A stretch of 50,018 nt of DNA, counting the filler, from Jimgerdemannia flammicorona (Eukaryota), in assembly GCA_003990765.1 (NCBI GenBank). It is 2 parts of 2 records of this genome, joined end to end, with 100 filler letters (N's around TTAATTAATTAA, not from the genome) between each part and the next. Parts side by side here need not be neighbours in the genome. Positions count along the whole stretch, not along the records: positions 1 to 24,964 come from RBNJ01000898.1; 1 more part is not named here. One strand, 5' to 3'. The notes beneath the pieces were generated by a model that had not been told where the DNA came from, searched no databases, and saw only the letters and a list, made by a program, of their open reading frames with translations. Positions 2,201-41,925 of this stretch are shown here, piece after piece. A program made the position numbers and the translations under genes. Position 1 is the first letter of the stretch, and every line of letters begins with the position of its first letter.

Positions 2201-2559
2201 AATTTATTATTTGTCAATGTTAATGTATTTTGAACTTTGACATATGTGATTTCTTTTCAATCAAATCAAATTAGAAGATGATTATGAATGGGTCACGTGT
2301 GCTCCAGTGGCGAATGTAGGTCATGTGATTTATTGAATTGATCAACGATCATTGTCTCGCAAAATCACACTCACACCTTACTTACACACTTTATCAACAT
2401 GCGATTGTCTTTGTCAAAGTATGAGAGTGGTGAAAACACTGGCGAAACCAGAACCTACGTTCGTGTATCTGTTGCTGATGATGCCCACCCCGATTTCGTC
2501 GACAGTCATTCATTCGATCTGAAACAATTGCAAAACCGTCGATCCAGAATCCCTCATCC

Positions 2560-3388
2560 TTGAAGCTCAGAAACTATGGAAAATTGTTGTTCGATGCCCT
2601 CTTCTCAGATGATGAGTCCAGTCTTGCCCGACAATTGCTACAAAATGTATTGCTGCCTCACCCAATCGGTCGGGTCCTGCTTGAGCTCAATGGCAACAAG
2701 GAGCTCGATGGCATCCCTTGGGAGTATGCATGGGACGGAAAGGAATACTTGATTCGTCAATTCATATTCACACGTGCGCTCGATAGGGAAACGCACCAGC
2801 TTCCCAAACTTCCTTTGCGCATTGTTGTCGTTGCTCCTGATCCCACAGACTCAATCGAAAAGAACCTGCCTGAACTTCATCTTAGCGACCAATTTCAGAG
2901 CATTATTGACCAATACTATAGTAACTCAAACAAGGTCATGTTGGAACGTGTCCTCCCGGCAACTATAATGAAGATGGAATCTATGCTCTCTGTCAAGCAT
3001 GACGAGATGGCCAAGGTACTTCACTTCAAGGGACACTGTATCGAAGCTGACGACAATTCCCGGGCTCTTGTCTTTGAACACCATGAACATGGTAATATTG
3101 ATGTCGTGAAAATGCTACGCTTCATCAGTGCCACTGAGAACCTGAGGTTCGCGGTTTTATCCGCCTGAAATACTCGCGAGGTCGCTCGAGATATTGTCCA
3201 GCATGGCGTTCATAACGCCATCGGTTCCTTTTGTTCATTACCCGATGACATTGCCCGAATGTTCGAGGCACTGTTCTTTCGATTCCTTGTTCTGGGTCTA
3301 TCCGTTGACAAAGCAATGTGGAGGACGCGCTTGGAACTTGGGAACGGAAAAGGCAAACGGCAACGCGATTACCTTGCAGGAGCAATGG
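2560..3388 (+). other. CHAT (caspase-like) protease domain with TGA at the catalytic-Cys position
   Basis: ELDGIPWEYAW, VLHFKGHC, FAVLSA[TGA 3166-3168]NTREVARDIVQHGVHNAIG; the frame continues into ORF 3259. Confidence 0.85.
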
Positions 3389-4789
3389 TGGGTTATGACA
3401 TGTATGCTAATAATGGTTCAACCTTCCTAGTAATCAAAATCTCATGCATGTCAATGCATTCCATAACTAGATACTCTATTCAACAACGTCTGAGACGACT
3501 GACAGTTTGTTTCTGTGCGAATCGGGGAAGCCCACGGTTAACCTCAACATGTTCCCCAACAACTATGCCAACATCCTCATCACGAAGAATTCTGTGGACG
3601 CAGGGAACAGCTTGCCAACTTAAAAACGCCTTAAGGCGCATGGCGAGTCGTCGGAGCGTCTCTTCAGACCTGTGCACCATCACAGGCATCAGTGGCCAGG
3701 GCAAGGTTAGTCCTAGAAAATTCATTGTCAAATCTACACTACAAGTGAATAGGAGTATATAGTTAATCTTTTTATTACCTATATTAGACATCATTGGCTC
3801 TGGAGGCTGTGAAACGGATCGCACACATCTTTCCCAGGTGAATGTTCGCTTGGCAGTTCAAAGATGATGTGCCGATTTAAGCTACAACGTATCTTCGCCA
3901 TCTGGTGAACGTCATACAACCCGAGCTAGTGAATTACATATTCCTTAAAGACGCCGAGGCGCAGCCGAGTCACAATGACATATTAGACATTGGACGGAAG
4001 ATCTTTAATCAATTCAGTGCCTCGTTTTTGTTGATCCTCGATCATGCCGACACCCTGAAGCGCGCCGAATCCCGTGGCAACGCAGAGGCACTTGCGATGG
4101 TGGCTTTACTTAAGGAGGTTTTAATGAAACCGGACATCGCTGTGAAGATCTTGGCAACTTCGCAAGAGCCTTTGAGATGGCCAGGGGAGGTCAGCATGCA
4201 TCTCGACGGTTTTTGTGATTTGGACGTTGACGGTGGCGTCGAGTTATTCATTCGAAAGCTTGATGCACAAGATAGGCAAATGATGAAGAGGGAGACAAAT
4301 TCTACGCTTCAGCACCTTGTCAGGCTCGTAGACGGACATCCACTGTGTCTGGAATTCCTTGCCCATGCAGTTGGCCTACCACAATATCGCAATGAATCGC
4401 TTGAGAAACTCGTTCATGAACAGGTCAGAAAATTGCTAGAGGAAGGCTCGAATGGGAATAGAAACCTCGGCACTCTTTTCCGGCCAATGATGGACACTCT
4501 TCCTATCGAACAGAGCCTGCTACTGTATATTTGTTCTCTATTCACCGATCCAATCACCTATGGGGTGCTCGCTTTTGTCCGTTACTTTGTCAACAACTCT
4601 GGTGAATCATTGGAATGGATCTATTCTTATATGGAGTTCATTGTAAAAAATCTACATCATCTTTGCGATTGTGGATTACTGTCTCGAAACGATGAAGAAT
4701 ACAGGATTCAATTCGCCCTTAGGGAGGGCGCGAGACAGTGTAATTCTACGTTGAAATTCCGCCTGCATTTGCCGATCCCAGGCTCATTT

Positions 4790-5333
4790 GATGATACATT
4801 TGTAGCTGGCGTAGTCGGACCGCCTCCACATGGTGAGTTAAATGCTGAAACGATATGATTCTTTTTCTCCTGTTCACTTTCTAACTCTACCAATCTTCAA
4901 ACAGTGAAATCCATGGTGCCGGAATGGCAACTTCGCAGAATTCGAGCCAACGCCCATAGGGAGCAGAGGACCAGGGGTTTCGGAATAAATTACTACTCCA
5001 TTGGAAATGCAGGTCTTAGAATTTTCAATATTCCCGGCATCAACGACCACTCTCCCGCTAAAGCAGCGGAACAGCAGCATGAAACATATCTTCAGTTGGT
5101 TGTATTCATATACGATATATCCGAAGGCAACAACAAGAGCTTCTCTCGGTACTGCATGGAACAAATATTACCCCTGGTACAAGAAAAACAAATCACGTTT
5201 ATCCTTTGTTTGAACCATTCCCACGAGACATATTAAAGAAGGATTGCTTCAATTCTGTTGAAGAAAGCTGCCAAAATTCTTCAAGATTATCTTGCGAAGA
5301 CGCACTGGATCATTAGTACAGAGGTTTCATCTG
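4790..5333 (+). other. Degenerate Ras/Arf-like small GTPase domain inside the NLR
   Basis: VAGVVGPPPH|VKS (G1-like), RTRGF (G2), LRIFNIPG (G3), LVVFIYDIS, FILCLNHSH (G4), ISTEVSSG (G5) occur in the expected order and spacing. Confidence 0.6.
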
Positions 5334-6986
5334 GTAAGTTTATATTTCATATCTATCCTAACAATTTCCATCATCTACCTCAAATATTTATAGCACACTA
5401 TTGTTACATTTGTTTGACTTATTACCAAACACACATTTTCTAATAGACATAGTACAAGCAAGGGACGGAACGTCTGAAATCGTAGGTAAGGGATACTTTC
5501 TGTATTTTTGAATGAATGTACTCGATTATTTTGGAATACTTAAATAACGGAATAACTTTCAAACGACCTACAGTGCGGAATGAAAATATAAACCACAACA
5601 GCAAAATGATTTACCGTAAACTCAACGACAACGTCCGCATGGAAGGACTTTTCATTGGGCCACAACGGGTCTCGAAGAATTGGACAAACTTCTCAAAGGC
5701 CATGAACGTTATATCACCATCAAAGGATTCGGCGGGATGGGCAAAACATCATTGGCGCTTCAGGTTTTCAATAACTTTAACTCTGGCAGAGCTCTTGCAC
5801 TATCTCTCGCTGGAACACCTAAATCAAGTCAAGTGATCCTGAATATTGCAGAATTTTTTGCTATCGACATTACGGGCTTAAATGATCAAGAACAGCAGTA
5901 TAAAGTGCTTCAAAATATGGAAAGCGACGAGAAAATCTTGCTCTATCTTGGAAATATGGAGGACGTCAAACATGGAATTCAGCGAAAAGACTCAGAAGCA
6001 AAGGCTCTGAAAAAGATTACCCAGAAATGTCAAAATTCTCGCAACATCACGGGTAGCACTTGCTTGGCCTAAAGAACATTTGATCGAACTGGCGGGCATG
6101 GTATTACACGACGGTATGCAGGTTTTTGAACAGTGGATCACACAGCGATTGGAAGAGGTGAATATAGATGACAAAATCAGACAGGAGCTTAGCCGTGTAA
6201 CTGGTGGTCACCCATTGTCACTGCGCCTTCTTGGAAGTATGTATGATAATTGTAATAACCCCATCCAACAATTCATCAAAGACATCGGCAATCTGCTTCC
6301 GGTGGCTGAGAATTGGGAAGCTATTGATGACCGACACGAAACAGTAGACGCCTGCATCAAGTACACCTTTGATTATTTGGACGATATGCTTCAGAAATTC
6401 CTGGGTCAGTCGAGGGAATGGAATGTTCCATTTACATCAACCCTCATCTTCAGGGCTTTGAACCATGACCCTGTTACATCGCCGGTGGCAACCAATTTGC
6501 ACAAACTTTGGCAAAGAAGCTGGCTAAACCGACGAAAATACGAGGTCGACCCAATGCTCGGTGACTGGCGCCCCAACATTATCGAAAATGAATCGGAGTT
6601 TTATAGCCTGCATCCACGCCTACACGACTTTCTCAACCACCACTTTAACAACATTGAGGCCACTCTACCCAACGATGCAGAAATTCAATTTTACACCGCG
6701 CTGTGTTACGGAGTTGGATTTGGTGTTGCAAATATTCTAGCCAAGCAAATTGAGTGGTGCACTAAGGCTGCGGACAACGGACATTTGGAGGCGCAGTTAG
6801 CGCTAGCTGCATCAAGGAGGGTGCTGGGTTAGCCCAGACCCGAAGATGGCATTTAATTTGTACTTGAAGACTGCGGAGGCAGGCAGCAAACAAGCACAAA
6901 GCGAGATCGTAATGTGTTATAGAAAGGGAAAAGGTGTCGAAATCAATGAGGAAAAAGCGACTTATTGGGAGCAAAAGCTTCAGGGT

Positions 6987-7076
6987 GTTGAAGGAAACAA
7001 GATGGCGCCACTTTTAGTTGAAGGAAACAAGACGGCGCCACTTTTAGTTGAAGGAAACAAGACGGCGCCACTTTTG
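6987..7076 (+). repeat. In-frame 30-bp tandem repeat x3 (VEGNK[M/T]APLL)
   Basis: GTTGAAGGAAACAAGAYGGCGCCACTTTTR occurs three times. Confidence 0.95.
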
Positions 7077-7439
7077 ATGAAGTTCGACCTTTCTCTCCCA
7101 CTCATCCATCGCTTGGCATTCGGTGGAGATGCGGCAAGGGTCAGATCACTCTGTAGTGGTCTCAGTGACGTCAGTGTTCGGGACAGAATTGGCAGAACGC
7201 CGCTGTACGTGGCTGCACAGAACGGTCACATTGACGTGATCGAGTGACACGTGTATGAATTTCAGGCAGAGATTTCCCCAAAAGACTTGTATGATGACAC
7301 CACTGCACCTAGCCGCAGAAACCGGTCGCACCGAGCTTTTGTCAACGACTTTGGCGTTGACGTCAATATCAAAAATTATGTCGGAGTAACACCCCTTTAC
7401 AGTGCTGCACGAAAAGGCCACGTCGATATTGTGAGGTTG

Positions 7440-7850
7440 CTCTTGGCCGACTCCAAGGCTGACGCCAAAGCTAAGGACGGCGAGGGATGGACGCCGCTTC
7501 ATTTCGCTTCAAGCGAGGGGCACGTCGAGGTCGTAAAGGTGCTCTTGGCCCACTCCAAGGTGGACCCCAACGCCAAGACCAACGACGGATGGACACCGCT
7601 TCACTGTGCTTCAAGCGAGGGGCACGTCGAAGTCGTAAAGGTGCTCTTGGCCGACTCCAAGGCGGACGCCAACGCCACGGATAACTTGTTGTGGACCCCG
7701 CTTCATCTCGCTGCGCAGAACGGGCACGTCGAGATCGTTGAGGTGCTCTTGGCCGACTCCAAGGTGGACCCCAACGCCAAGACCAACAATGGATCGACGT
7801 CGCTTTACTGGGCTACTTGCAGAGGGCATCCCGAGGTTGTGAGGATGCTG
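7440..7850 (+). repeat. Ankyrin repeats as 102-bp units with high internal DNA identity
   Basis: CTCTTGGCCSACTCCAAGG recurs at 7440, 7542, 7644 and 7746; the translation gives GWTPLHxA...GHVEVVKVLL units. Confidence 0.95.
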
Positions 7851-10161
7851 GAGGCCGGGCGCCAATGCCAAGAAAAATAATGAATCAACTCTGCCTCACT
7901 TCCCCAGGCAGCGCGTCGTAGTTTTGAAGATGGACGATCGAAATGTCTTTACAGGGGCACTAAGCGGAGGATTCATAACTTGAGATTCCTGACCTGGTAG
8001 GGAATTTTGCTGGATAGAGTGTATCAAAACTTGTGCCGTCTGGAGATTTTGTCACCGTCGGGGTAGGAGATAGCGTGGAAAGAATAGAACGAAAGCCAAA
8101 TATATTTTTTAACAAAGAAAAAGAGGTTCTCATAAAAATTCTTTTCAAAAGTTCAAATGATGGTAAGGGAGTGTTGTTTTGGAGTTTCTATTTCGATTCC
8201 ATCATGTCATCTTTGTTTTGTGGAACCCCAAGATAGTTGATCGGCAAGCGCTATGTCGAGATCGCTATCACAGCTTGCGCACACCACGACCGCCATGCTT
8301 CATAGTAATAGATATTACTGACGAAAGCTTTAGAATGGATGGTGGGGTTGGTGTTATAGTTGTCTTGGGTTTGTGTTTAGGGTGCGGCTGATCGTAGAAT
8401 ATAGAATGGATGTTAGGGCAAGGTGCGCCGTGATTGATGGTGTGGTGAATTGGAAGGTGGCATGGCGACAGATAGGGTGATGACAAGCATTTGGGTGGAC
8501 GAAATGAAGGGTGGGAAGCGTGAACTACAAAGTCACCGGATAGAGATAGTAGCTGATCGTATACCCGACCTCCATTCGTTCCCATCCCTCCTACACCATT
8601 GCCCGACCAGATCTGCCGCCAAGCGCCATTGCTATTTTGACAACCCTGTCATAAGAATCTCTGCCTCGTCGCTTGAATGGAATCAGTTAAAGTTTAGTGG
8701 TGAGTGCTTTTATTTTATTTTATTTTTGGAAAGCTCAGAAATAATTTCCAGCCTGGCCCCGCCCAACCCTCTCGGCCCATTCAGGAAGTAATTACATCCC
8801 TTCGCCATTACCTCCGGGACCACTTAACCCTCCACCGCCAACCACGCCAGACCCAAACCTGTCCAACATCCCCGTTGGTAGGGGGGGGGGTATACGTGGT
8901 TTTCAGGTCATGCCGTCCGGACGTCATGCTGTCCTGACGGTGGTCTGCCGGTTTGGCATTGATTTTCTGTTCAAAACATATTATGAAGACGAGGTGGCAA
9001 AAAGAGGAATTGAGTCCATTAGCATCGTTCATAGTAACCATAGCCAAACACCTTAGTATGGCACAGATGTATCAATAAGATGCCAACTTACATTCAAATC
9101 GTGGGGACGTTCTGGTATTAAATTCTAAGTGAACGCATCGCGCAAATAACGACATATGGGACAACAATTAGCAATGTTCGACAGATAGTATATAATAGCC
9201 CAGCCGGGAATATTACGTCGTTCGAGCTTTGCAAGCTGGGCGTTGCAATTATTTTTAACATCCATCATCCTTTCGAAATTCGCCGAACTATACTCTTCTT
9301 TGAACGCCGTTCTGACCTCACTACCCTCACTAAGTGAATTGTATACAACTATTAAAATATCTGTTATACAATGAAATCAATCATGAACTTATTTTTAGAT
9401 ATATATATATTACACCAAGTTTCACATCTAAGCTATGGAATTTTGAGAAATGGTTAAGTCAGCCTCTTATTGTATTTCTTTTTCTTTCTTTGTTTTTTTT
9501 TGAAAAAAAGAAAAAAAAAATAAAAACGTTGATTCTAGTTGGAGGAAACCTTGCATGCCACTGGTAGCATATCTTTAGGAGAGGCCACTTTCAACATGTG
9601 AAGATTTCGTGCATTGCAGAATATGAAATAGATTGACAATAACCTTGAAACACAATAATATAATACTGACAACCAGCAAAGCAAGACATGCACTAAGTGC
9701 AAGACCATCAATACAGACAATGGCCATATCATTATAGCTGAGTTTTCCTTTATGGAGGTGGTGTTGCCCTTCAGGCTAAGACCACAGTAAGATTGCACAT
9801 CCAGTTTAGTATATAAATATACCATTGTTTGGTTTCTGGATTTAAATATTTACTTGAATAATTTATAATGAAGCTATTAACCCATTAGGGTTTTGCAAAA
9901 AGGAATAGAAGAAATATATTGTAACGGTGACCCCAGAATGATGACATCAGCACAGGAGACAGCCTTTCCTTACAAGCCACCAGATTGGAGCACAAGAAGA
10001 TCATACAGCATATGAGATGAGCAATGATGACCAACTGTAAGTCATTGTGATCACTGCACAAGTATCCTGAAGAATATAAAAGAAGGATCAAGGAACTGCA
10101 GTAGCAGCAACCAACAAGAACCACCAATCCCAAAATAGCTCAAAGACTTACCATAAACGAA

Positions 10162-10989
10162 ATACCTGCTGCCTGCCAAACCTCAAGGTCAAGGAATCAC
10201 CAAGGTATCTTGGTCAAGGAAAGAATGTTCCAAGACATCAGAAGAGCCATGAGGACCCACTCAAGAAGGACTCCTAGTGTCAACCTGGGTACTGTAGACT
10301 CTTATCACTTCATTCTCTACCACTGTGAAATGGAAACAAGGATCACTATTACTACCGAATGCCTCCAAATGTGGCAGGAGTACAAAATAGGAAACCTCCT
10401 CTGCCGGGAGTTCCCAGAGGCCAGCACCCAAGAGCTACAAGATGCCACTCCCATGGATATACATGAAACAAGGACAGCTAAGAAGATCCATCAGATCTTC
10501 AGACATATACCATGGTCAATCCCCAACTTGGAGTATGTTAGAGTCTCAGATTTTAGAGACCTATCATCCCACCATATCAATGCACTAGAAGCCAGGGTGG
10601 CTACAGAAGCCCAGTCCACTATCACCCTCAACAGTGAAGAAGTAGAAGACTTCTGGCACCCTATCCTTCAGGACAACTCAGATCAATTCCTGCAAGGATT
10701 GATCTCAGTATTCCAAGGCCCAAGCATCCAGGTTAGATCTCCCCAAGACCCCACATTTGTTCCTTATTTTGTGGAAGAGAACCTCATAGACTGGAGAGCT
10801 CCAGACCTTGTCCCTGATTTCCCTGCCACAGCCAAATGTGATGATGTCATCGATGACATCATCCTGCATGACATACCTGAAGCACATGAAGTACACGAAA
10901 CATGTGACCTACATGACGAATTCGCAGACCTCATCTCCTTCAGTGATGATGATGATAAAGCCCCCATGATCCTGAACTTTCTACTCTAA
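10162..10989 (+). CDS. LTR (U3)-encoded protein of unknown function, 275 codons, acidic C-terminus
   Basis: Open frame of 828 nt. The start is ATA here but ATG in the other two copies (17390; 645 on the minus strand). Same length in the 3' LTR (17390-18217). Confidence 0.75.
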   Translation: MPAACQTSRSRNHQGILVKERMFQDIRRAMRTHSRRTPSVNLGTVDSYHFILYHCEMETRITITTECLQMWQEYKIGNLLCREFPEASTQELQDATPMDIHETRTAKKIHQIFRHIPWSIPNLEYVRVSDFRDLSSHHINALEARVATEAQSTITLNSEEVEDFWHPILQDNSDQFLQGLISVFQGPSIQVRSPQDPTFVPYFVEENLIDWRAPDLVPDFPATAKCDDVIDDIILHDIPEAHEVHETCDLHDEFADLISFSDDDDKAPMILNFLL

Positions 10990-11197
10990 GTTCTTTGTTA
11001 CACTAGATAATGCCAGCACCAGTATTCTCATGTGATACTGGATAATGCCAGCACTAGTATTCTGAGGTGATGCAAAATTGTTCCAGCACTGGCATTTTGA
11101 TGTGACACTAAATAATGCTAGCCCTGGAACTTAGTAGTTTTAGTTATTGGAATTTATATTTAGCTTTATATCTTAGCAACCATTGAATTATATTTTG

Positions 11198-11230
11198 TAT
11201 AAATACTCCTCTTATTTCCTCTAAAATAAA
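11198..11230 (+). promoter_or_regulatory. LTR TATA box (TATAAATA) and AATAAA signal
   Basis: TATAAATA at 11198-11205 and AATAAA at 11225-11230; both conserved in the 3' LTR (18391). Confidence 0.6.
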
Positions 11231-11452
11231 GTCAGTCAATTCAGTACATTCAGTTCAGTATAATACACACAATCCCTTGCAAGCAATCTAAGAGATAACA
11301 AGACAGTTAAAGATAAGAAGTTTGAGGACTATAAAACCTTGGGAAGGCACTCCAATAAGAACTTGCTTATAACAACTTAAGTTAGTCTAAGAGATATATC
11401 TTGAAGAGAATCTGGTGTATTTGAAGGACTCAGTAACCACTATGTGACAACT

Positions 11453-11468
11453 TGGTACCCATTGGCTT
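11453..11468 (+). promoter_or_regulatory. Primer-binding-site-like sequence
   Basis: TGGTACCCATTGGC lies 3 nt after the LTR end; the primer tRNA was not identified. Confidence 0.55.
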
Positions 11469-11569
11469 GTGATTCAAGATGAATTCCTCACTTTCAAGCT
11501 GAAAAATGAACAACTCCCACAACAACTACCCTGACTACAAGAGTCATCCCTGCAAGAATTCAAGACAAG

Positions 11570-12826
11570 ATGGAAATATGTCCCCTCACATTCTATAGAT
11601 ATACTACTGAAGAGTCAATTCTGACCTTCATTGAAGACTTTGAACAATTTGCCACCATACGAGCCCTTGGTATGGATGCTCAATTGGCCCTTCTACCAGT
11701 CAGCCTCAGAGGACCTGCCAGAGACAAGTTCAATACAGCCACCATTGCTGATGCTGGTGCAGCCAAACTTGCCAACATGAAGGTCTTCCTCAGAACAACA
11801 TATTATACTGAAGAGATCAAGCAAGCTCTCAAGGATCAACTCAATACTATCTGTCAGGGACTTAGTGAAGATTCCAACTCATTCTATATCTGAATCTGCC
11901 ACCAGATTGTCTTGGCTGGCTATAATGATGCCCTCAAGGAACAAATAGCAAATTCAACCTTCCTCAAAGGAGTTTACCCTGAAATTGCCCTAGCAATCTG
12001 GTCTACCCCAGCTGCACCAACCCTTGATCAGAAAGTGGTCTTTGCATAGAGATATTGGACTGCCAGACACCCTGCCGAACACTCAATGGAGAAAATAACT
12101 GGCATCAAGATAGAGCCATCAAAGCCAACTAGTATCTTATCTGCAACAGTTGTAAACAGACAACCAACCCCACCTATCCCCAAGACAGCCAAAGCTGACC
12201 CAGTGGAAGAACTTGCCAAGCAGTTTGCCAAGATGACTGCACACCTCAGTGATGTTGTTAGAGAAGTCTGAAGCACCAACAGGAGACCAGTGTAGAGATT
12301 TGCAGTTGCTACAAAAGAACACAATATCACATACTTCAGATATAGAGAAGAAGGCCACTATGCAAAGAGTTGTATGACCGAAACAAGATGCAAAGCCCAA
12401 CCAAGCAATGCTAGTAGAACCAGAGAACAAACCAATGCAGTAGTCATTGAGGAGATTGGTGATACTGATGATGAAGAATACTATGAGGAGCTCGAATTCT
12501 ACCCTGCTACTGAAGGTATCAGAACCCAGTCCAAGCCCTATGACAAGAAGAGCAACAGCAAGCCAGTTGGAAGACCAAAGAAGACTCTAGCTGTCACTAT
12601 TCAAAGCAAGACCAAACCTGAGGAGATTGATCAAGACATGGAGTTAGATGAAGCTACCTGCCAAATTATCGAAGGCACTACTCCAGTCTCAGGAGAAAGT
12701 GAGAGCAAGAAGAAACAGAAGCTGTGCAAGACCAAGATCCACCAGTATGACATCTACAAGTACCTCAAAGAACAGAAGATCAATGCCACTTTTGGGCAGC
12801 TAGCTGAAGTTCCTGCCTTCAGATAG
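11570..12826 (+). pseudogene. gag: Gag with degenerate zinc knuckle
   Basis: FIEDFEQFA...LRGPARDKF capsid-like segment; YFRYREEGHYAKSC (decayed CCHC); CGA>TGA stops. Confidence 0.85.
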
Positions 12827-12939
12827 CAGTTGAGAGTAGGACTTGCAACTACCATCAAGAATTAAGAGTACAAGATTGTAGAAGCTCACAATGCACAAGA
12901 AGAATCTGAGAACTCAGGTAAAGAATCCAAAGACTAGTG

Positions 12940-15900
12940 CAAGACATCAGCCTATACCCTCTGTCAGATTGAAGACTGTATCTTTGATGTCATCATTGAT
13001 ACTAGTGCTGGAGGATGCCTCATGAGCAAGAAGGCAATTGACTGCCTAGGTTGGGACATTGAAGAGTCTACTAAGATGGTCTATGTTACAGCAGATGGTA
13101 CACGAGCTACCCCTATTGGCAAAATCCGAGAAGTCCCCATTAAGATAGGAGGAGCTACCATTCCAGTAGATATGATTGTTACAAGTACCACCAACTATGA
13201 CATCATCATTGGCAACCAATGGCTTCACAAGGCCAAGACCATCATTGACCTCAATGCCCAGAAGATGCAGATCAACTACAGAGGAAGAAAGGTATGAGTT
13301 TCTATCAATGTCCACAAAGGAGTCCTGCCTGACATAGAGGAAGGAGATGAAGAAGACACAGAGGTCTTCATGCACTTGGTGAACAAGAGCAAGAACAAGA
13401 CACCTAAGCTCACAGATGAGCAGTGGTATAACAAGATCATCAATAGATATGCCCCTCAAGGAAGATGCCCTCATGGTACTAGAATGTACTGCTCCAAACA
13501 CCTGAATGACTGCTGGTCCTGTATCAGTGAAGTCAGGAAAATCTGCTAACAGAAACATGAGCAAGAAGCTACTGAAGCAAAAAGGAAAGCTGAAGAAGAT
13601 GACCAGCCCCCAGAGCTTCAAGCTGACAGTGACAATGAGGAGGAACAAGAATCAGACATCACCCTCAAGGTCAAGAAGATTCACCCTGAAGCTAAGATCC
13701 CAGAATACAAGACTGAAGGAGCCATAGGAATGGACCTTGCCAGCATCCAAGATGCTATCCTTGAACCACAGACCACCACCCTACTTGGCACTGGAATTGG
13801 AGTCAAGTTGCCAGAAAACCATACTGGAATTATCAAGACCAGGAGCAGTCTGGCCAAAAGCGAAATCTCAGTTGAAGGAGGAGTAATTGACCCTGATTAC
13901 ACTGGTGAGATTTTTCTCATAGTCAGAAATTACAACCACACCACCCCCTTCAAAGTCAAGAAGCATGACAGGATTGGCCAGATGCTGATCCACGAAATCA
14001 AGAAGCCCAAGATCATAGAAGCCACTGAACTTATCAAGACCAAGTGAGGAGAACAAGGCTTTGGATCTACTGGAAGAGGAGCCTATGTCACCACCAAGAT
14101 TACTGAACTTGAGCACAAGAAAGACAAGGACCAGAACAAGCACATATATACCATTGGAGAAAAATTTCCCCTGGAGGAACAACTTCTCAAGATCCTGTAC
14201 CAGAATGAAGGAGTACTTGCTACAGACTTTAGAGATATCCACAATCAAGAACCCAAGTACTACTATGAAGTTGACACTGGTGATACCAAGCCTATCTACC
14301 AGAAAGCCAGACTGATACCACCTGCCTACAGAGAGTGGCTGCAAGCCGAACTCAAGGAAATGGAAGAAGCTGGAATCATCAAGCAAGCTATCAGCCCCTG
14401 GGCCTCACCCATTGTCCTCACCCCAAAGAAAGGAAGCAAGCCTGGAGAGTTTGCACTAAGACTCTGCATCAACTACAGGAAACTCAATGCCATCACCAAG
14501 AAGGATAGGCAGCCCATACCAAATATTCAAGAAATCCTTACCACCCTTGGAAGCGAAGCCAAATACTACACCATTTTGGATCTGTTCTCAGACTTCCATC
14601 AGATCAGTCTCACTCAAGATGCCAGTGAGAAATCGGCCTTTATCACACCTGATACCACCTATACCTATCTGCGAATGACATTTGGAATGTGCAATGCCCC
14701 AGCAAGTTTCCATCAAATGATGAACAAAGTCTTCAGCAATGAGATTGGAAAATGGCTCTTTGTCTATATTGATGATGTGATCATCTTCAGCAACACTGCA
14801 TGGGAACATGTCAATTACATACAGCTAACCCTCAAGAGGCTCAAGGAGCATAGCCTCTATATCAAGCCCAAGAAATGTAAGTTTGCAGCTCAATAAATCA
14901 CCTACCTAGGACACCTCATCAACCAGACTGGAATCCACACAGACCCCATGAAGATCGAGGCTGTTGCAGCCTACCCAAGACCCAGAAAAACTACAGAAGT
15001 CCATGCCTTCCTTGGACTGGCCAGCTACTACAGAAGATTCATCAAAGGATACTCCAACATTGCAGCATCTATCTATGAGCTACTGAAGAAGGAGACCAAA
15101 TTCGAATGGACCACGGAGCACCAAGAAACCTTCAATGAACTCAAGACCAGGTTGACCCAAGCACCCATCCTCAGAAGACCAGACTGGAACCTAGAATGCA
15201 TCCTGCAGACAGATACAAGTGCCATAGGACTTGGAGCAGTTCTAGCTCAGAAGAAAGATGGATATGAATATGTTATCTCCTATGCAAGCTGAGGTACCCA
15301 CGGAGCAGAACAGAACTATGAGTCATGCAAGCTTGAATGCTTAGTAGTAGTTTGGGCAGTAGACAAGTTCCACTACTACCTAGCTGGAAAATGCTTCACC
15401 ATTCAAACGGACCATTCTGCTCTTGCCTGGCTATTCCACACTTGGAACCCCAAAGGAATATATGCTAGATAGATCTACAGGCTGCAAGAGTATGACTGTA
15501 CTGTCAAGCACCACTCAGGAAAGACCAACACCAATGCCGATGCACTCTCAAGGACACCCCGAAACACCCCCATCAAGACTACTCAACATGAATAAGGAGC
15601 CATACTATGGATTAATCAGCTACCTTGGGCAGCAGAAGATACCCAACCACCTTGAACTCTGGACAATCACCATCATCAACCGACTTGGAAACAGTTTGAA
15701 TTAGACAACACTATACTCAGAAAAGGAGGAAAGCTAGTAATATCTGAATACAAGAAGTATCAAGTAATGAAGGAAGTACATGAGCAAGGACACTTAGGAG
15801 GAACCAACATATACGACAAGGCAAGAAGAGCCATGTGGTGGTCCAAGATGGAAGAAGACCTGCACCAATTTGTCAAAAGGTGTGACAAGTGCCAAAAACA

Positions 15901-16800
15901 GAAATAAGATCAGCAAGACCAGGTACCCAGATCATCAAGAATTGAGCCTATCCCCTTCCACCACATCACAATGGATATCATTGGACCACTACCAGTAACA
16001 CTATCAGGAAACTACTATATTATAGTTATCATAGACCTCTTCACCAAATGGATAGAGGCAGGAGCATTACAAGAAGCCAATGCCCTCTCTATAGCTGACT
16101 TCCTATACCGAGAAATCATCTGCCACTACAAGACACCAAAGCAAATCACAACAGACTGTGGTACAGAATTTGTCAATGGATTCTACGAGATAATATATCA
16201 GAAATACAAGATCCAGTACATCAAGACCACTGCATACCACCCTCAAGGAAATGGACAGACAGAGAGAACCAAAAAGACCCTCAAGAACATTCTAGCAAAA
16301 ATCTCAGAGACATATGAGAATTGGGATAACTATCTCCCAACTGCCCTCTCTGTTCTATGAGACATATGGTCACAGAGCACACATTTTACCCCAAGAGAGC
16401 TGCTCTTCAGAGAAGAAGATTCTGATGGAACCTCAGCTACAAATCTAGACCTAACTTGGAGGTGGGTTGATGCAGAAATCTGGAGACTACACCAAATCAG
16501 GAAGAAGGCTGAAGATTATATCACCAAGTCACAAGTGCTGATAAGGAAGAATGCAGAAAAGAATCACAAGACCCTAGAACCCATCTGGATTGGAGAAAAG
16601 ATTCTACTGTATCAAAATATGGTAGAAGCCTCATGGTCATAAAAACTGGAGCCCAAATGGGAAGGATCCTTCTATATGTAAGATATCAAGGGAACTATCT
16701 TCTGGCTTAGAAAAATCTCAGGGACCATACTGCCTACCATGGTACATAGGAACAGACTCAAAAAGTATCATGAACCTATATAAGAGAAGCAAAACATGAT
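12940..16800 (+). pseudogene. pol: Pol: aspartic protease, dUTPase, RT, RNase H, integrase
   Basis: IIDTSAG (PR); SPWASPIVL, LRLCINYRKLN, MTFGMCNAP, YIDD (RT); LQTDTSAIGLGAVL (RH); HEQGHLG..CDKCQK, MDIIGPLP, TDCGTEF, HPQGNGQTER (IN). Multiple stops. Confidence 0.95.
13660..14075 (+). pseudogene. dut: Retroelement dUTPase domain (between PR and RT)
   Basis: GMDL, TRSSLA, GGVIDPDYTGEI, DRIGQM, (R)GEQGFGSTG motifs. Confidence 0.95.
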
Positions 16801-17137
16801 GACCACCTACAAGGTTCTAGTCTGCAAATCATAACAGCATGTCCCATGACCAGCAGGCTATCTGTCTAGACCATTCTCTAAGGGATATGGCACTGGCAAC
16901 TACTCATCTGTGAGACTTTCACAGTCAGAGGAGTTCAAACCATCAACTGATTGGTCAAGATCAGAATCAGGCCCTTGCTCTATATGAAGGGAGTGACCCT
17001 TCACCATCATGCCAAAATACAAAGGGAAGATGTCAGCCAATAAACACCAGTTTTTGACCCCTTACCAGAGGTTATGGGATTAGCAAATTTTTCAGGACTG
17101 GACCAATGAATAAGGATACTCAGGAAGATCCTTATTT

Positions 17138-17147
17138 AGGAGGAAGA
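17138..17147 (+). promoter_or_regulatory. Polypurine tract
   Basis: AGGAGGAAGA lies immediately before the 3' LTR. Confidence 0.8.
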
Positions 17148-18642
17148 TGTAACAGTGACCCCAGAATGATGACATCAGCACAGGAGACAGCCTGTCCTTG
17201 CAAGCCACCAGATCGGAGCACAAGAAGATCATATGGCATATGAGATGAGCAATGATGACCAACTGTGAGTCATTGTGACGACAGTACAAGCATCCTGAAG
17301 AATATAAAAGAAGGATCAAGGAACTGCAGTAGCAGCAACCAACAAGAACCACCAATCTCAAAATAGCTCAAAGACTTACCATAAATGAAATGTCTGCTGC
17401 CCACCAAACCTCAAGGTTAAGGAATCACCAAGATATCTTGGTTGAGAAAAGGATATTCCAAGACATCAGAAGAGCCATGAGGACCTGCTCAAAAAGGACT
17501 CCTAGTGTCAACCTGGGTGCTGCAGACCCTTATCACTTCATTCTCTACTGCTGTAAAATGGAAACAAGGTACACTATTGCTACTGAATGCCTCCAAATAT
17601 AGCAGGAGTATGAAATAGGAAACCTCCTCTGCTGGGAGTTCCCAGAGGCCAGTATCCAAGAGCTACAAGATACCACTCCCATGGATATATGTGAAATAAG
17701 GATAGCTAAGAAGATCCATCAGATCTTCAGGCATGCACCAGGGTTGATCCCCAACTTGAAGTATGTTAGAGTCTCAGATTTCAGAGACCTATCATCTCAC
17801 CATATCAATGCACTAGAAGCCAGAGTGGCTACAGAAGCCTGGTCCACTATTACCCTCAACAGTGAAGAAGTAGAAGACTTCTAGCACCCTATCCTTCAGG
17901 ACAACCCAGATCAATTCCTGCAAGGATTGATCTCAGTATTCCAAGGCCCAAGCATCCGAGTTAGATCTCCCCAAGACCCCACATTTGTTCCTTATTTTGT
18001 GGAAAAGAACCTCATAGACTGGAGAGCTCCAGACCTTGTCCCCAATTTCTCCGCCAAAGCCGAACATGATGACATCATCGATGACGTCATCCTGCATGAC
18101 ATACCTGAAGCACGCAAAGTATGTGAAATGTATAACCTACATGACGAATTCGGGGACCTCATCTCCTTCAGTGATGATGATGATGAAGCCCTCATGATCC
18201 TGAACTTTCTGCTCTAAGTTCTTTATTATACTAGATAATGCCAGTACCAGTATTCTGAGGTAATGTGAAATTGTTCCAGTATTGGCATTTTGATGTGATA
18301 CTAAATAATGCCAGCCCTAGAACTTAGTAGTTTTAGTTATTGGAATTTATATTTAGCTTTATATCTTAGCAATCATTGAATTATATTTTGTATAAATACC
18401 CCTCTTATTTCCTCTGAAATAAAGTCAGTCAATTCAGTATATTCAGTTTAGTATAATACACACAATCCCTTGCAAACAATCTAAGAGATAACAAGACAAT
18501 TAAAGATAAGAAGTTTGAGGACTATAAGACCTTGGGAAGACACTCCAATAAGAACTTGCTTCTAACAACTTGAGTTAGTCTAAGAGATATACCTTGAAGA
18601 GAATCTGGCATATTTGAAGGACTCAGTGACTACTATGTGACA
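17148..18642 (+). repeat. 3' LTR (1495 bp) containing a disrupted copy of the LTR ORF (17390-18217)
   Basis: TGTAACAG...GTGACA; the ORF has TGG>TAG stops at 17600 and 17882. Confidence 0.97.
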
Positions 18643-19719
18643 ATATATAAATGTGGTTGTCAAGTAAAATACTAAACAGTTTAGAGGCAGCTTGTTCAAT
18701 ATATTCAAGATTACATTGTACATAGGAGCTCTGATCCCAATATAGCTATATTTCTCTTTTATACAACAGTACATTTTTAGACAGGATGCCATATTATATT
18801 TATATAGCAGTTAAGCCTTGAATGCTATCATTGGGCAAGAACAACTAATTAAGAGATTTATATATTACTAGTATTTGTTTTTATATTAGTCCTATATTTT
18901 TACATATTAAGTACATAAAGATTATTTTAAGTTTGTACTACATTGTGAAGTTTAATCTCAATATCTCCAAGACTGCAAACTTCTAGTAATACAGTAGCTT
19001 AAATTAGTCATACTTTTCCTGGTTATAGTAGAGCTCAGTCAAATCACCTAGAGATAGAGATATTGTCATGCTTAAGAGGTCTGGTTCTTCTTTATAGTTA
19101 TAGATATTGAGAGCTCATATCTATAGTATACTACCATCAGAGTCAAAACTATCAAATTATGGATCAATAAGAATTTTCATCAAAAAAAAATAGATCAATG
19201 ACAAAGTTTTGACCATTGATAAAATTTGACTAAAACAAATAGATTGACAACAAAAATTTAACCAAAAAAAATGAATTCATGAATTTTGATCAAAAAAATT
19301 AGATTGACAAAATTTGAGGATTGACAGATAATATATGCATTATATCTATCAAGATATATGATATATTATAAAATCAATTACAAAGCTAACATAGCCAAGT
19401 TTTTATATTATATAGCCAAATCTTCATCTCTTTTGCCAAGTTTCAATTCTTTTCTCTTTGCCAAGCTTGCCAAATTTTCTTTCTTTTGCTACTTTTCTAT
19501 TTACTTTACTATTAAGTTTCTGTCTCATCTGTGGCCAAGTTTCTATTTTCTCTATCACTAGGTTTCCATTTACTCTACTGTTAAGCTTTCAATTACTAAT
19601 ATACTAAGTACATAAGTAAATATAATTTATTTATGATTTAAATATATTGTATATATAAGAGAGGCATTCTATACCAAATTCAGTCTTAGGCACCCAGTAC
19701 ACATCAAGTTTAAGATTGT

Positions 19720-21429: not shown

Positions 21430-24400
21430 ATGTCAAGGTCAATTATGAGAATCTTATATTTAGAGACTTAACTGAAAAGATTTCAAAATCAACATGACTT
21501 TTCAGCTCATAAGAACCTATAGTCAAACTGGATAAATTTGATACAACACCTATCTCTGCTACTACAGAAGAGCCAATCATCACTAATATTTGAATAGGAA
21601 GAGAAGTAATTATCTCAAGACTTGCCAACTATCCAGCATCAGAAGGATCTCAACTAAAAATCAGTGCAGTCTGAAATCTTCAACCAGATTAACCAGATAA
21701 TACAAGCAGCCCTATTGGAGACTTTGAAGAACTTATCCAAGAACTAAAAGATGTTATTACACAAGTCCAAAATCCTGTAGGCAGATACACCATAGTAGTC
21801 TCACCAATCTCACCCATAGAACCTTTACCACTAGCTCTTGCAGAACTGAAAGTAGCTCTCTCAAGAATACCGAGGCTCACTCTACTTCACCTAAGATCCA
21901 GAACACTATCCTCAAGATACCCAAGCACTCCCATTTCCAGTGATAGTTCAGAAAGTGATTCAGAGTCAGAATCTGAATTAGAATCTGGACCAGAATCAGA
22001 ATCAGAAGAAAGTGATAATGAAATGGCCATCTTACTACCAACCTTTGCAAGATACTCAGAGGAAGATCCTAGAGAATTCCTTGACAGAATCAAGAGAATT
22101 GCAGCTCTGAGAAATCTCTCAGATGAAAGAAAAATTGCCATCTACAAGGCCCAACTAAGAGAGCCAGGCAGAGGAATTTTCCACCAAACAAAAAATGACC
22201 CACACTCAGAACTGGCAATACAAATACAAGTAGCAGCATCCTATAAGCTGGAATATATAGCCATAGTCTACTGGCTCAATGAAAAATATACAGGAAATGA
22301 AACCTACTACAAGGTTCAAGAATCCATCATAGAGATGAAGATGAATCTTAGAGAAATGCCCAGAGCCTTCTTTACAAGAATCCAGAAGAGAATGTATACA
22401 GCCAGATTTAATGTCACCAACCAAGATATCATAGGTCCAATGACCTTCATGAATGGGATTCCTCTGAACATTGTCCAGCATGTCTGTACTCTAGGTATCA
22501 GAAGGTCTGAAGAGCAGGAAGATGCAGCCCAAGAATTCTTTGATTTCAGGCAAAGAAGGAAAAAAGGACAGGTGTGAAATCCAAAACCTCAGTTTCAAGT
22601 TGGACTGATTGGTTTGATAGATTGAGAAACTCACTATATGCAAAAATTGGAGTTACCAAGACAACAGAGGATACTCACCTCAGAGGAGCCAAGGTTATCC
22701 ACCAAGAGACAACAGGAACTACCAGCAAGAGGAAAGAAGATACTCTGCCCAAGACAGAGCCCAAGTTCAATACTTCCACTGTAGACAATTTAGACACTAT
22801 GACACTGAATGTGACAATAAAAGAAGTAACTGAAGGAACTCAGAACTACCAAACTGAAGGAATAATACTCAGTATAAGAATACTGAAGCCCATCCTGTCA
22901 AAGACTTTAAAAAAGCAAGCAACAGTGAAGACTACAGTGACCTAGACTTGTACCCTACCAAGTTTACCACCCAAAAAACAGTCTATCCAGCAGAGAAAAG
23001 GAAGAGATCTATAGGAAGGCCATCCAGGAATATCAGCAGAAGTATTATCTAAAAAGTAGATAAAAAATATGAAGAAGAATAAGTAGAAACATCTCCCTGG
23101 ACTCCCTCACCTTTTTTCTCTAAGACAAATGAGCTGCTACCAGAGAATGAAGAAATGGAGCAAGAAGAATGAGAACCTACTGCCCCAAAGCCCAAGAAGT
23201 AGTACACCCTGAAGACTACACCCAGAGACATCTATAATAAAGCCTGGCAGAAGATTAAAGATGCCAAGATGGAAGTACCTCTCCTGCAGTTTCTGCAACT
23301 GATATCAGCTAGAGTTCAAAACAAATTACTAAGGACCACTAGGTCTAGTACTGGCTGGGTCTCCATTCCACAGCAAGAGCCAGCCCCCACAGACATCCAG
23401 GCTATAGAAAGACATGTTAGCTCTTACCTACATAGAGATATTAGAGGACAAAAGGCGAAAATCCTCATAGACACAGGAGCAGTAGTCTGTATCATTGCCA
23501 AATGATTTCTGGATACCCTCCAATGGCCCATTGATAGACCATCCAACCTCAGCATCATAGTAGCAGATGGAGCCCGAACTCAACCCCTTGGAGAAGTATG
23601 AAATATTACTATATCCCTTGGACACATTTGGTTCTCCATCCCAAAAGCTATTATCACCAAAACCATTACCTATGACATGATCCTTGGTACCAACTGGATG
23701 AAAGAAATGAATACCGTTGTTCATATCAGTCAACAAGTACTCAAGTTTAACAACTGAGGCCAGAAGTACAGAGTTAAGATAACTGGCTATAGCAATTGAA
23801 GAAAAAGAAGAAGGTCACCATCCAGGAGAAATATGTATACCTGCAGTAAAGAATCCACCATAGAAGAGGAAGAAGAATCTGAAGATAGAAATGATTCCAG
23901 ACTTAATCCCCAAATCAACCTAGTGGATGATATGTCAGAAGACAACATATGGGCTAAGAACACAATCCCCATTACTATTGGAGCCATTGCAGGAGAAATC
24001 AAAGGATACCCTATCTGCCTCAAGAGATACAAGTATCCCGAGCACTCCTTCAAGATCATTGGGACAAGGAATTCGCCTGGTACAGTCTGCCCTGAGAGCA
24101 GAAGAAAGAAGAAGAAATGCAGACATGACTCAGAGACACCTGCAGCTGAAGCCACAGAAGTACAAGCAATTTGGGATCAAGAATCATCTGAGAAAGAAGA
24201 AATCCCTGAACAAGAAGTTCCCAAACAAAAAGTACCTGAAGAAGAAGAAGTTCCCAAACTCATTCCCTAGGATGACTCTTGCTGGACACTACCTGAAGAT
24301 AATGATCCTTGGAATATGGAAGAAGGACTCAGCATAATTCCCATTATTCCCAAGAAAGAAACTCACCAAGAAAGGAGTTTTTAGCTAAAAAGATATCTAC

Positions 24401-27784: not shown

Positions 27785-29968
27785 TTACTCAATGACATTT
27801 AATACTGGCTTGAGACAAGTAATATCTTTAAATTCATCTTGAACAAAGGGGCGAATATTATGATAGAGATATTTCTGACATTTCAATTTCATAGGAAAAG
27901 GCTTAAGAACTAGAAATGACATAGCTTTAATACTCTCTATGATCTTGGAAGTCTCTAATTTACTAGTTTTCAGTAATTTGAATTCCTGGAAAAGGCTACT
28001 TATGACTTCTTGGGCTTTGATTATCCCAGGATTAGCACTGGTGAAAAGAAAATATTGAAACTTTTGCAGGTCAGGTAATTTTTTAAAATAAGTTTCTAGG
28101 CTACTTATGATGTTATAATATTGAAAACCTTCATCACCATTATAACGTCGAGCTTTGTTTAGTCTAGTGATGCTAAACCTTTTTACCATATTAACAACAT
28201 GATCTATACAATCTACTGTTGTTTTGCAATAAAGCCTTTTGATTAATCTGAAGCTACCATCACACTTGAATTTGATATAGTCTGGAACCATGAAGTTCAA
28301 TTCAATACTTTCATAATAACTACTTATTACCAAATATAAGTAAAACCAAAGAGTGGTATTGTTTTTGTTTTGTCCATTCACATTGTCACAAGTGATTTTT
28401 AAGTGCTTTTTACCTTTATTCAACTGCTTAATCCCATCAAAGACTAGACTAAGCATACCATTCAGACCTTTCCTAAGAAGTTCATTCTCATCTAGTATAT
28501 AATTAATTTGCTTATAGACCACTTCATCTTAGATACCAAATAAGTGCACTTTGTAAGCACTAAAATAATACACCTTGCCGATCTATTGATCTGAATAAGG
28601 TACATGGACATTTTGAGCTCAATTATAACTATAATGGGCCACTGTGCCAATGCTGTAGTATGGTGCTTTGTCTTTCAGTACAGAATAATTTTGGTCAGTG
28701 AGTTTTCTTTGCTCTTCTGCCAACTTGGTATTTTTGTTATAATAATTTCTCTCTAGTTTGGCTTTGGCCAGATACTCTTTATATTTCTTTAATAAATCTT
28801 GGGCCTCTTTTTCTTTATGAGCTTTGAACTGTAAGTCATTTTGCAAATACTAGTAAGTATTATATAAATCGGTCCTCGGACTCATGATTTGAATATACGG
28901 GGTTATGTAACTGGTGCCATAATTTATAGAATGTATCATACTTGAGATTATGCAATTTATTATTATTCTCCAGGCTGGCTAAAAAATCCCAGTAAACAGA
29001 TCTGTAGCTCATTTCTGCCAGTAGAAAGATAATTGATAGGGTGACTTGATTAACATTTCTTACTGGGCTAGGTAAGCCATGAACTTCAGTATAATTTAGC
29101 AAAAAATTCTTGATAGCAGTAGCAATATCAATATTGATAACCATTCTGGATTTTCACTGTGGCATTCTTTTTACATTACTATGAACCTATGGTAGAAGAC
29201 CATTCTTTAACAAATGATTTCGAATGTTTTCAAAATAATTGTGACCAATGCCAAGTATATTGAGATAAGTTTTTTGGCAAATTGGAGTGCTACAATTTCA
29301 GTAGTAAATAGTTCTATTATTGACATGAGCTTTCTTTTTAAGATGGTGGCTAGTATTGGTCACTCCTCCATCCATAGTCTTGAGTTGGGCCATTAAAAAA
29401 ATATCTTGTTTGAGTTTTGTTAGCATTTAAAAATCTTCTTGCAGTTTGGCAAATTCTTCCTTGAGCAACTTGGGTGAACAACTGCAACTACATTCTACTC
29501 TCAGAAAATAGAGAGCTTTTTCATATTCATTTATAATTATGTCATCTACTATATATATATATTTTATATATATTATGCACAGTTTGTCTGGTTTTGTTAA
29601 ATTTCTTTTCAGTATACATTAAAATATATAAGAATACCCCTATATATGATACCTGTAATATTCTACTCTTCAGAGGTTTTTCTTTTTTTTCTAAACTCTT
29701 GGGATGTTTCTGGTAATTCTTGCTTCTTAGAGTTTAATTCCTGCTGACTTCATCCAAAAATATCTTCTTGATGAGCAGTATTTATACTTTTATTAGAATT
29801 ATTAGAATTGACATATAGTTGTTGGTAAATTTCGTAGGTAATTCTCTCTTTATCCAAATATTCTTGAATAACTTTGGTGTCAGATAATTTAAAAACATAA
29901 GGAGCAATTTTCTCGCCTTGCTCTTGTTTCAAAATGCTTCTGATCGCACTATAGTTTTTGGGTTCCAT
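27785..29968 (-). mobile_element. Sola-like DDD transposase pseudogene
   Basis: AHYSYN*AQNVHVP, ITCDNVNGQNKNN, FMVPDYIKFKCDGSFRLIK (decayed GHTKF.CD..FGLIK), EVHGLPSP. Terminal inverted repeats not established. Confidence 0.7.
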
Positions 29969-41188: not shown

Positions 41189-41925
41189 TGTAAGAGGGTT
41201 ACTTTTTAGGGTAGCCGTTACGTAGTTCTAGAAGGTTTTCTAGAAGTTCTGAATATTCTGGAAGACCGTTTTCTTATGGTCAAGATCAATTTTGTATGGA
41301 GTATGTCCTCTACGCTTATTGATTTCAAGATCGGGTTGACGTCTCAACCAAAGTCCTTTTCCGGACTAGTTCTGGATGTTCAGGATTTTCCGTATTTCAG
41401 GAAGTTCAAGAAACTAAGACCAGCTTAGTTGAATTGGCGTATCGCTGCAGATAATACCCAATTAGGAAATTTCGTGATGGGGTTAGGAGTAGGACCTAAC
41501 AGGGAGCAGATTTACTTAAGAGTAGTTTGTGGGTTATGGAATAGGTTTATTTGCTATTCATGATATTGCTATACTAGGAGTACTTGTGTGAAGGGGTATT
41601 GTGGGGAAGTGCTCAGGAGTTGTGTTCGGATTGTTCAAGTCTGTTCGAGTCTGAGATTCTGAGGTCTGGGGGAGGGGGTATTTATACTAGTGAGGGGCTA
41701 TCTGGACTATGCTAGATATGGATATAGCACTAAGTGCCTTGCTGAGTCGGAATGCAGTCACGTAGTATAAGTGTGATCTGACATGTCAAGAGATCATCTG
41801 ACTGCTGAGTCAGTTCACAGTCATGTCGTATAAGGCTAATCTAACTATATTATGACTGCTAGACTATTTATAGGTTTAGGTACTGTCTGGTTAGTCTTTG
41901 ATGACATCACTATTGATGACATTAT
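41189..41925 (-). mobile_element. Family-2 LTR 3' fragment, tandem to the previous copy
   Basis: Repeats 39320-40060 (TGTAAGAGGG...). Confidence 0.92.

Follow-up and report, generated by a model that had tools for sequence, protein, structure and literature searches.

The long terminal repeats (LTRs) of retrotransposons count as control DNA without coding content; they are masked in annotation pipelines, and additional open reading frames (aORFs) are surveyed only in the DNA between them. Here we describe an open reading frame (ORF) that lies wholly inside the LTR of a Ty3/gypsy element, and argue that it is the decayed copy of a protein gene. The element was found in a 50,018-nt stretch of the Jimgerdemannia flammicorona assembly GCA_003990765.1, referred to below as the window, in the part taken from RBNJ01000898.1 (positions 1 to 24,964); all positions count along the whole stretch. 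By analogy of position, the nearest described system is the sag gene of mouse mammary tumor virus (MMTV), a gene of about 0.8-1 kb that takes up most of an unusually long LTR (about 1.3-1.5 kb) and precedes the main LTR promoter; by analogy of kind, the nearest systems are the aORFs of LTR retrotransposons. The likeness to sag is one of layout, but there is no sequence relation: the window family matched 0 Pfam families, and Pfam includes an MMTV superantigen model. Moreover, the window protein has no evident transmembrane or glycoprotein features, its host element is a Ty3/gypsy retrotransposon and not a betaretrovirus, and a TATA box stands directly upstream of the ORF. A working analogy of another sort is provided by foamy-virus Tas/Bel1 and human T-cell leukemia virus Tax, accessory transactivators with an acidic C-terminal activation region, of which Tas is driven by a promoter of its own, distinct from that of the LTR, on which it acts back. 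The window protein would likewise be an acidic accessory protein, and its composition fits, but there is no homology to Tas/Bel1 or Tax and the coding position differs.

The aORFs comprise plant aORFs, ORF0 of Retrosat2/RIRE and an antisense ORF of Boty. In the portions of the sources available to us they appear as lineage-specific genes of little-known function, without homologues outside the elements, kept in most copies and more divergent than pol (PMC7264820, PMC3485330), and the window gene is similar in these respects. The difference lies in location. In the available text the aORFs occupy the internal region, either from the LTR to gag or from pol to the 3' LTR (PMC7264820), and ORF0 of Retrosat2 is placed upstream of gag (PMC3485330), whereas the window gene stands wholly inside the repeat and is consequently present in two copies per element and in solo LTRs. 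Presence in most copies, without homologues outside the elements, was found for the window gene and an internal-region position was not. Neither 'within the LTR' nor 'in the LTR' occurs in the available text of PMC7264820, and literature searches over titles and the opening lines of abstracts gave no report of a protein gene inside a retrotransposon LTR, although an older report is possible.

Two further systems share single features with the element. CERV of Caenorhabditis elegans Cer1 is, in the part of the source available, a novel lineage-restricted Ty3/gypsy accessory protein that acts on element RNA and is needed for export of Cer1 genomic RNA; it differs from the window gene in being made from a spliced mRNA, with its ORF in the env position and not in the LTR (PMC10309623). 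Fungal Ty3/gypsy elements that bear a dUTPase are known from Postia, Phanerochaete and Tuber (Tmt1). PosPlaTy3-5 of Postia carries it, like the element in the window, between protease (PR) and reverse transcriptase (RT), a layout given there for a few elements of fungi; the accessible part of that source mentions no LTR gene (PMC2864245).

The ORF and its copies in the window

The ORF occupies positions 10162-10989 on the plus strand, within the 5' LTR at 9920-11449 (plus strand, 1530 nt, TG..CA ends), and consists of 275 open codons followed by TAA. An earlier interpretation made from the DNA alone, here called the sequence-only reading, had placed a frame inside the LTR, had let it fill over half of a 1.5-kb repeat and had given it the same 828-nt length in both LTRs. 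All of this was confirmed: the frame takes up 828 of 1530 nt (54%), and it has the same placement in the 3' LTR (17148-18642, plus strand, 1495 nt, TG..CA ends), at 17390-18217 on the plus strand. The 5' copy was further described as stop-free beside a gag-pol full of stops. The contrast in stops is real (0 against 17), but the copy is not intact, its first codon having mutated to ATA, with the first ATG at 10225; its stop-to-stop frame spans 10105-10989 (294 codons). The 3' copy has in-frame TAG codons at 17600 and 17882, both of which read TGG in the 5' copy. A third LTR copy, at 327-885 on the minus strand, corresponds to LTR positions 3-561 at 86.6% identity; it retains the TATA box and codons 1-106 of the LTR gene with one stop, and it breaks off within that gene at codon 106. 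The start ATG is kept in the 3' copy and in the third fragment, and full-length relatives of the protein begin at the same place. The interval 10162-10989 is therefore that of the native gene, though the start codon of the 5' copy is lost.

The frame is carried by all three LTR copies in the window (3/3), and contigs from 4/4 sequencing runs cover it, with homology ending at 9920 and 11450. Its length exceeds what LTR composition gives by chance, with 0/2000 dinucleotide-preserving LTR shuffles producing an open frame of at least 275 codons (mean 92, maximum 219) and 0/300 shuffles of the whole element reaching 275 open codons (maximum 260). The contigs of the four runs hold 4847, 897, 362 and 64 records of the window family, most of them 90-99% alike; two of the four runs are soil metagenomes, in which the family is abundant. 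Thirteen other runs, all with small shares, were left out of account as evidence of habitat. LTR and internal depths in runs X1-X3 are not copy numbers and were not used to estimate the abundance of solo LTRs.

Selection on the gene is shown by distant relatives and not by the window copies. The sequence-only reading had treated the equal length of the two copies and the stop-free state of the 5' copy as signs of selection, and neither can be used in this way. Equal ORF length says little, since indels are nearly absent from the element as a whole: the LTR pair differs by a single one, and the 5.1-kb gag-pol has no frameshift. At the gag-pol stop rate of 0.0099 per codon, 2.7 stops are expected per 275 codons (the 3' copy has 2), and the probability of finding 0 stops in 275 codons is 0.065. 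The proposed check by dN/dS gave a divided answer: omega is 0.79 between the 5' and 3' copies, close to neutral, and far lower against a distant relative, as described below. Divergence between the LTRs amounts to 9.7% in the ORF compared with 5.8% and 6.1% in the rest of the LTR, and several Arg codons of the relatives are His or Cys in the window copy, as expected from CpG decay. All three window copies are dead and have decayed neutrally since insertion, mostly by transitions, many of them at CpG. Among variants in the run contigs, 12 of the 37 indel rows were covered; all lie in the non-coding LTR and 0 in the ORF or gag-pol, a distribution that is at most suggestive.

Directly 3' of the LTR gene, at positions 10990-11130 (plus strand), a motif of about 35 nt (..ATAATGCCAGCAC.AGTATTCT..) is repeated imperfectly three or four times. 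The sole LTR-LTR indel, of 35 nt, lies outside the ORF and corresponds to one unit of this short tandem motif, and contigs of other copies show more indels there.

The protein family and its constraint

Thirteen distinct protein relatives and one metagenome locus (L001) were identified, with identities down to about 30%. The first protein search returned five relatives with 62-88% identity, one of them (70%) a full-length protein of 271 aa. An exhaustive HMMER search gave 5 proteins, among them P0007 (44%), P0009 (38%, 342 aa) and P0010 (35%), and a profile search gave 12, including the new P0011 (325 aa, 32%), P0012 and P0013 and the marginal P0014. In the relatives with 29-44% identity the frame has stayed open over 175-342 aa. 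In the alignments, replacements are conservative and gaps in the tail comprise whole codons. All full-length members share the N-terminus MP(A/P)xR..QT(S/A), and the family motifs are AKKIHQxFRHxP, LExxVA, WNPILQDNPDQ[FW]LQ, F[QE]GPxI, PQDP, DLI[ST]F and LNF.

At the DNA level, no relative was found in viral_contigs or genome_contigs, and metagenome_contigs gave L001 alone, in a second scan. L001 is a metagenome contig of 1535 nt with an intact ORF of 291 codons, 260 of which could be aligned with the window ORF at 41% amino-acid identity. At the nucleotide level the pair is identical at 0.519 of first, 0.642 of second and 0.408 of third codon positions, and this order, 2 > 1 > 3, is characteristic of a translated sequence. 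For the same pair pN is 0.41, pS 0.74 and omega about 0.19, a rough value given the saturation of dS and a codon alignment built on the protein alignment.

The ORF very probably represents a real gene for a protein of about 275-340 aa that purifying selection has kept across lineages, as judged from these comparisons, and we regard gene and selection as solid. The proposal of a true accessory gene belonging to the element, as opposed to a frame open by chance, is upheld by the shuffles, the 13 relatives and the low omega against L001. The contrary case, a chance open frame in A/C-rich non-coding LTR DNA, would account for the neutrality of the window copies (omega 0.79) and for the lack of a known domain, but it leaves the shuffle result, the order of codon positions, the omega of about 0.19 and the open frames of 175-342 aa in relatives at 29-44% identity without explanation, and we attach next to no probability to it. 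Capture of a host-gene fragment into the LTR by transduction, with no role for the element, is also very improbable. LTR retrotransposons are known to capture genes, but the captured genes are present in one or few copies, according to the available part of the source (PMC7264820), and contigs from four runs cover this ORF. Moreover, the family spans identities of about 30-90% with start, stop and upstream TATA box kept, and the 13 relatives all lie on short, repeat-like metagenome contigs; none of them has a Pfam domain, is informatively named or occurs in a longer form. The sequence-only reading had named a match to a known captured host gene as an outcome that would overturn it; no such match was obtained, with 0 Pfam families and no longer or fused forms of the protein found, the latter being weak evidence.

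Putative promoters, expression and possible role

How the gene is expressed and what its product does we infer from the DNA around the ORF and from the composition of the protein. The ORF had been placed upstream of the TATA box by the sequence-only reading, which is true of the TATAAATA box at 11198-11205 (plus strand), 209 nt beyond the end of the ORF and presumed to be the promoter of genomic RNA (P2). Another box, TATAAAAG (P1), lies at 10075-10082 on the plus strand, 87 nt before the start codon, and recurs unchanged in both the 3' LTR and the third fragment. TATA boxes flank the ORF on both sides (10075 and 11198). Downstream of P2, AATAAA (11225) is followed by an initiator (Inr)-like TCAGTC (11232), together spanning 11225-11237 on the plus strand, and the former would be a poly(A) signal upstream of the P2 start. 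The arrangement of P2, AATAAA and Inr is classical and would give an R-U5 of about 215 nt.

The region around P1 is the one that can be recognized in L001. The 10-mer TATAAAAGAA precedes the start codon by 87 nt in the window and by 80 nt in L001, and the leader with the start-codon region (10142-10169, plus strand) is 86% identical over 29 nt to L001 355-383. The local alignment of the upstream sequences scored 42 against a shuffle mean of 28, and 2/200 shuffles reached that score. In the 5' LTR the leader from P1 to the start codon contains no ATG. The remaining non-coding DNA of the window LTR and of L001 is unalignable, and a P2-like layout in L001 was seen by eye, without statistical support.

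On these motifs the likeliest account, to which we give about even odds, is that the gene is served by a promoter of its own (P1) ahead of the canonical one of the LTR (P2). P1 (TATAAAAG, with the ATG-free leader) would then drive an mRNA for the LTR gene. The poly(A) signal AATAAA at 11225 closely precedes the presumed start of P2 transcription, so RNA made from P1 would include it and would end inside the LTR, and genomic RNA, starting at P2, would be free of AATAAA at its 5' end. Every LTR would then be a self-contained gene unit of about 1.1 kb. Run X14, which is RNA by guess, has contigs on the LTR and almost no gag-pol cover, and is evidence of neither transcription nor silence.

Two other accounts of expression have to be weighed against a promoter of its own. 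MMTV sag is translated from the RNA 3' end, via a spliced or subgenomic mRNA, and the sequence-only reading had likewise put the window gene wholly in U3 and expressed it from the 3' end of the element RNA. A gene without its own promoter, translated via such an mRNA, accords with the position of TATAAATA (11198), AATAAA (11225) and TCAGTC (11232) downstream of the ORF and with an R-U5 of ordinary size, but not with a TATA box and leader that are conserved directly upstream of the start in a relative at 41% protein identity; this part of the sequence-only reading is left uncertain, and we consider it rather unlikely. Conservation of P1 and its leader would also be explained if P1 were the promoter of genomic RNA and the ORF, situated in R (or R-U5), its first cistron, an 'ORF0' inside the repeat. 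R would then measure about 1.1 kb, to our knowledge far beyond that of any LTR element; gag, behind a 275-codon ORF and further ATGs, would presumably be translated inefficiently; and a canonical TATA/Inr stands at the usual distance from the LTR end. This layout therefore appears doubtful to us, even though ORF0-type genes are placed upstream of gag in plant elements such as Retrosat2, in the available part of the source (PMC3485330).

The six members analyzed for charge have a net charge of -20 to -28, with 9-22% K+R in the head, and their last 70 residues contain 17-30% D+E and 29-37% hydrophobic residues. The N-terminal head is basic, the core helical, and the tail, which holds DLI[ST]F and LNF, acidic-hydrophobic and disordered. 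Two low-confidence AlphaFold2 models agree on a helical region at about 45-185, a small hairpin at about 200-215 and a disordered head and tail. Searches for known relatives of sequence or fold were negative: five family members matched 0 Pfam families at E up to 1-10, a PDB sequence profile had no match at E up to 1, and the ESM Atlas had no usable match. The Foldseek check suggested with the sequence-only reading gave no PDB match at E <= 0.001, and in a wide VIA-align search the top match (Z 5.8) covered just a long helical hairpin and stayed below the noise level of the tool for helical models. Readings of the tail motifs as a clathrin box, an LC3-interacting region (LIR) motif or a nuclear export signal (NES) were dropped, the motifs being short, as was a homodimer prediction; no claim of binding is made.

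Nuclear activators typically combine a basic head and an acidic-hydrophobic tail, and the charge layout hints at a regulatory adaptor of the nucleus. On that account the protein could tentatively be a transactivator or adaptor acting on the element's own LTR, much as Tas or Tax does, an idea that comes from composition only. It may instead be an RNA-export helper like Cer1 CERV or an anti-silencing factor.

In sum, we hold it rather probable that the ORF is what decay has left of a true accessory gene, one that a dUTPase-bearing Ty3/gypsy lineage bears within its LTR, with a probable promoter of its own and a possible regulatory role. Besides the saturation of dS mentioned above, several points weigh against this interpretation. 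All 13 relatives come from short metagenome contigs (567-4848 nt) and were gene-called, which biases the set toward open copies, and some of them are truncated or run into unrelated sequence (P0006). An LTR setting is demonstrable neither for L001, whose contig is 1535 nt, nor for the distant relatives. P1, P2 and the poly(A) signal were assigned from sequence motifs alone, and the downstream layouts of window and L001 agree no better than chance, the alignment score being reached by 115/200 shuffles. Finally, the two AlphaFold2 models are poor (mean pLDDT 54.9 and 45.5) and yield no fold, and the transactivator idea has no homology behind it.

The element, its surroundings and the meaning of the gene

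The gene resides in a Ty3/gypsy LTR retrotransposon of 8.7 kb with the order gag-PR-dUTPase-RT-RNase H (RH)-integrase (INT). The coding region occupies a single frame at 11510-16639 on the plus strand (5.1 kb), with 17 in-frame stops in 1710 codons and 0 frameshifts, and Pfam matches follow the order RVP_2, dUTPase, RVT_1, RT_RNaseH(_2), Integrase_H2C2 and rve. Integrase after RT is the domain order of Ty3/gypsy (Metaviridae) elements, and direct LTRs, TG..CA ends and a target-site duplication (ATATAT, plus strand, at 9914-9919 on the 5' side and 18643-18648 on the 3' side) are likewise present. The dUTPase domain lies between protease and RT at 13688-14041 on the plus strand (PF00692, E 3.6e-24). 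No Pfam match to a chromodomain, the mark of chromoviruses, was obtained on three open pieces of 16626-17054, a decayed region. A primer-binding-site-like sequence with a TGG start (TGGTACCCATTGG) is found 3 nt past the 5' LTR at 11453-11465 (plus strand) as a candidate priming site; ARAGORN detected no tRNA gene in the window. The polypurine tract AGGAGGAAGA at 17138-17147 (plus strand) adjoins the 3' LTR, and contigs of other copies carry the same tract before position 9920 (runs X1, X3).

The LTR pair is 91.9% identical. Its 121 differences comprise 112 transitions and 9 transversions, 47 of them in CpG context, and correspond to a Kimura two-parameter (K2P) distance of 0.088; the CpG observed/expected ratio of the LTR is 0.12, compared with 0.36 for the window. 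The element is old and has decayed mainly by substitution, with almost no indels.

Elsewhere in the window several other features were observed. At 2482-7880 (plus strand), long open frames end in 4-5 ankyrin repeats (Pfam Ank, E 4e-50), with tandem units of 102 nt in the ankyrin region at 7356-7865 (plus strand); by eye, the upstream frames resemble an NB-ARC/NACHT-type NTPase with Sel1-like repeats, and three pieces scanned there had no Pfam match. An open frame of 294 codons at 21693-22577 (plus strand), as long as the LTR gene, contains a Ser/Glu-rich stretch, has no Pfam match and may be gag of another element. On the minus strand at 27785-28528 there is a 247-aa open frame with a Pfam DUF7869 match (E 3e-10). 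A second repeat system is present at 39320-41877 and 44480-46328, with direct repeats of about 620 nt that are 1868 nt apart, inverted copies at 45660-46328 and inverted arms of 1111 nt (40006-41116/44551-45661, 87%). On the minus strand, a TATAAATA box precedes a CAGA/GAACA-rich stretch in one copy, and the system probably consists of nested LTR elements. A 48-nt stretch at 42072-42118 (minus strand) is shared at 81% with the flank of L001 (10-57); in the window it follows a TTCGAACCC motif resembling the T-arm of a tRNA, and may be a repeat derived from a tRNA or similar to a short interspersed nuclear element (SINE). Finally, GC-rich open frames of 180, 197 and 360+ aa without a Pfam match lie at 47781-50018 (plus strand), the last running off the window end; the frames at 47781-48323 and 48939-50018 contain similar segments (..CLRWDP..V.L...G.P..), and the frames could come from the ORF1 region of a further retroelement.

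What is unusual here is a selected protein gene inside a retrotransposon LTR that is kept in distant relatives. A gene located inside the repeat changes gene dosage, with two copies per element in addition to any solo LTRs, and it changes how long LTRs are to be read. It also changes the view of the origin of 'complex' regulation, as MMTV sag would no longer be a retrovirus-only oddity, and the protein family with its unmatched fold is a concrete, testable object. A bolder possibility, which we hold to be unlikely, is that each LTR, the 3' and solo LTRs included, is an autonomous gene, equipped with a promoter of its own and the poly(A) signal of the LTR, for a trans-acting regulator of the family, either an LTR transactivator or a blocker of host silencing. 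If this were true, copies left after loss of the element would still serve the family as helper genes, and a soil eukaryote, probably fungal, would have a retrotransposon with a retrovirus-like 'complex' regulatory circuit.

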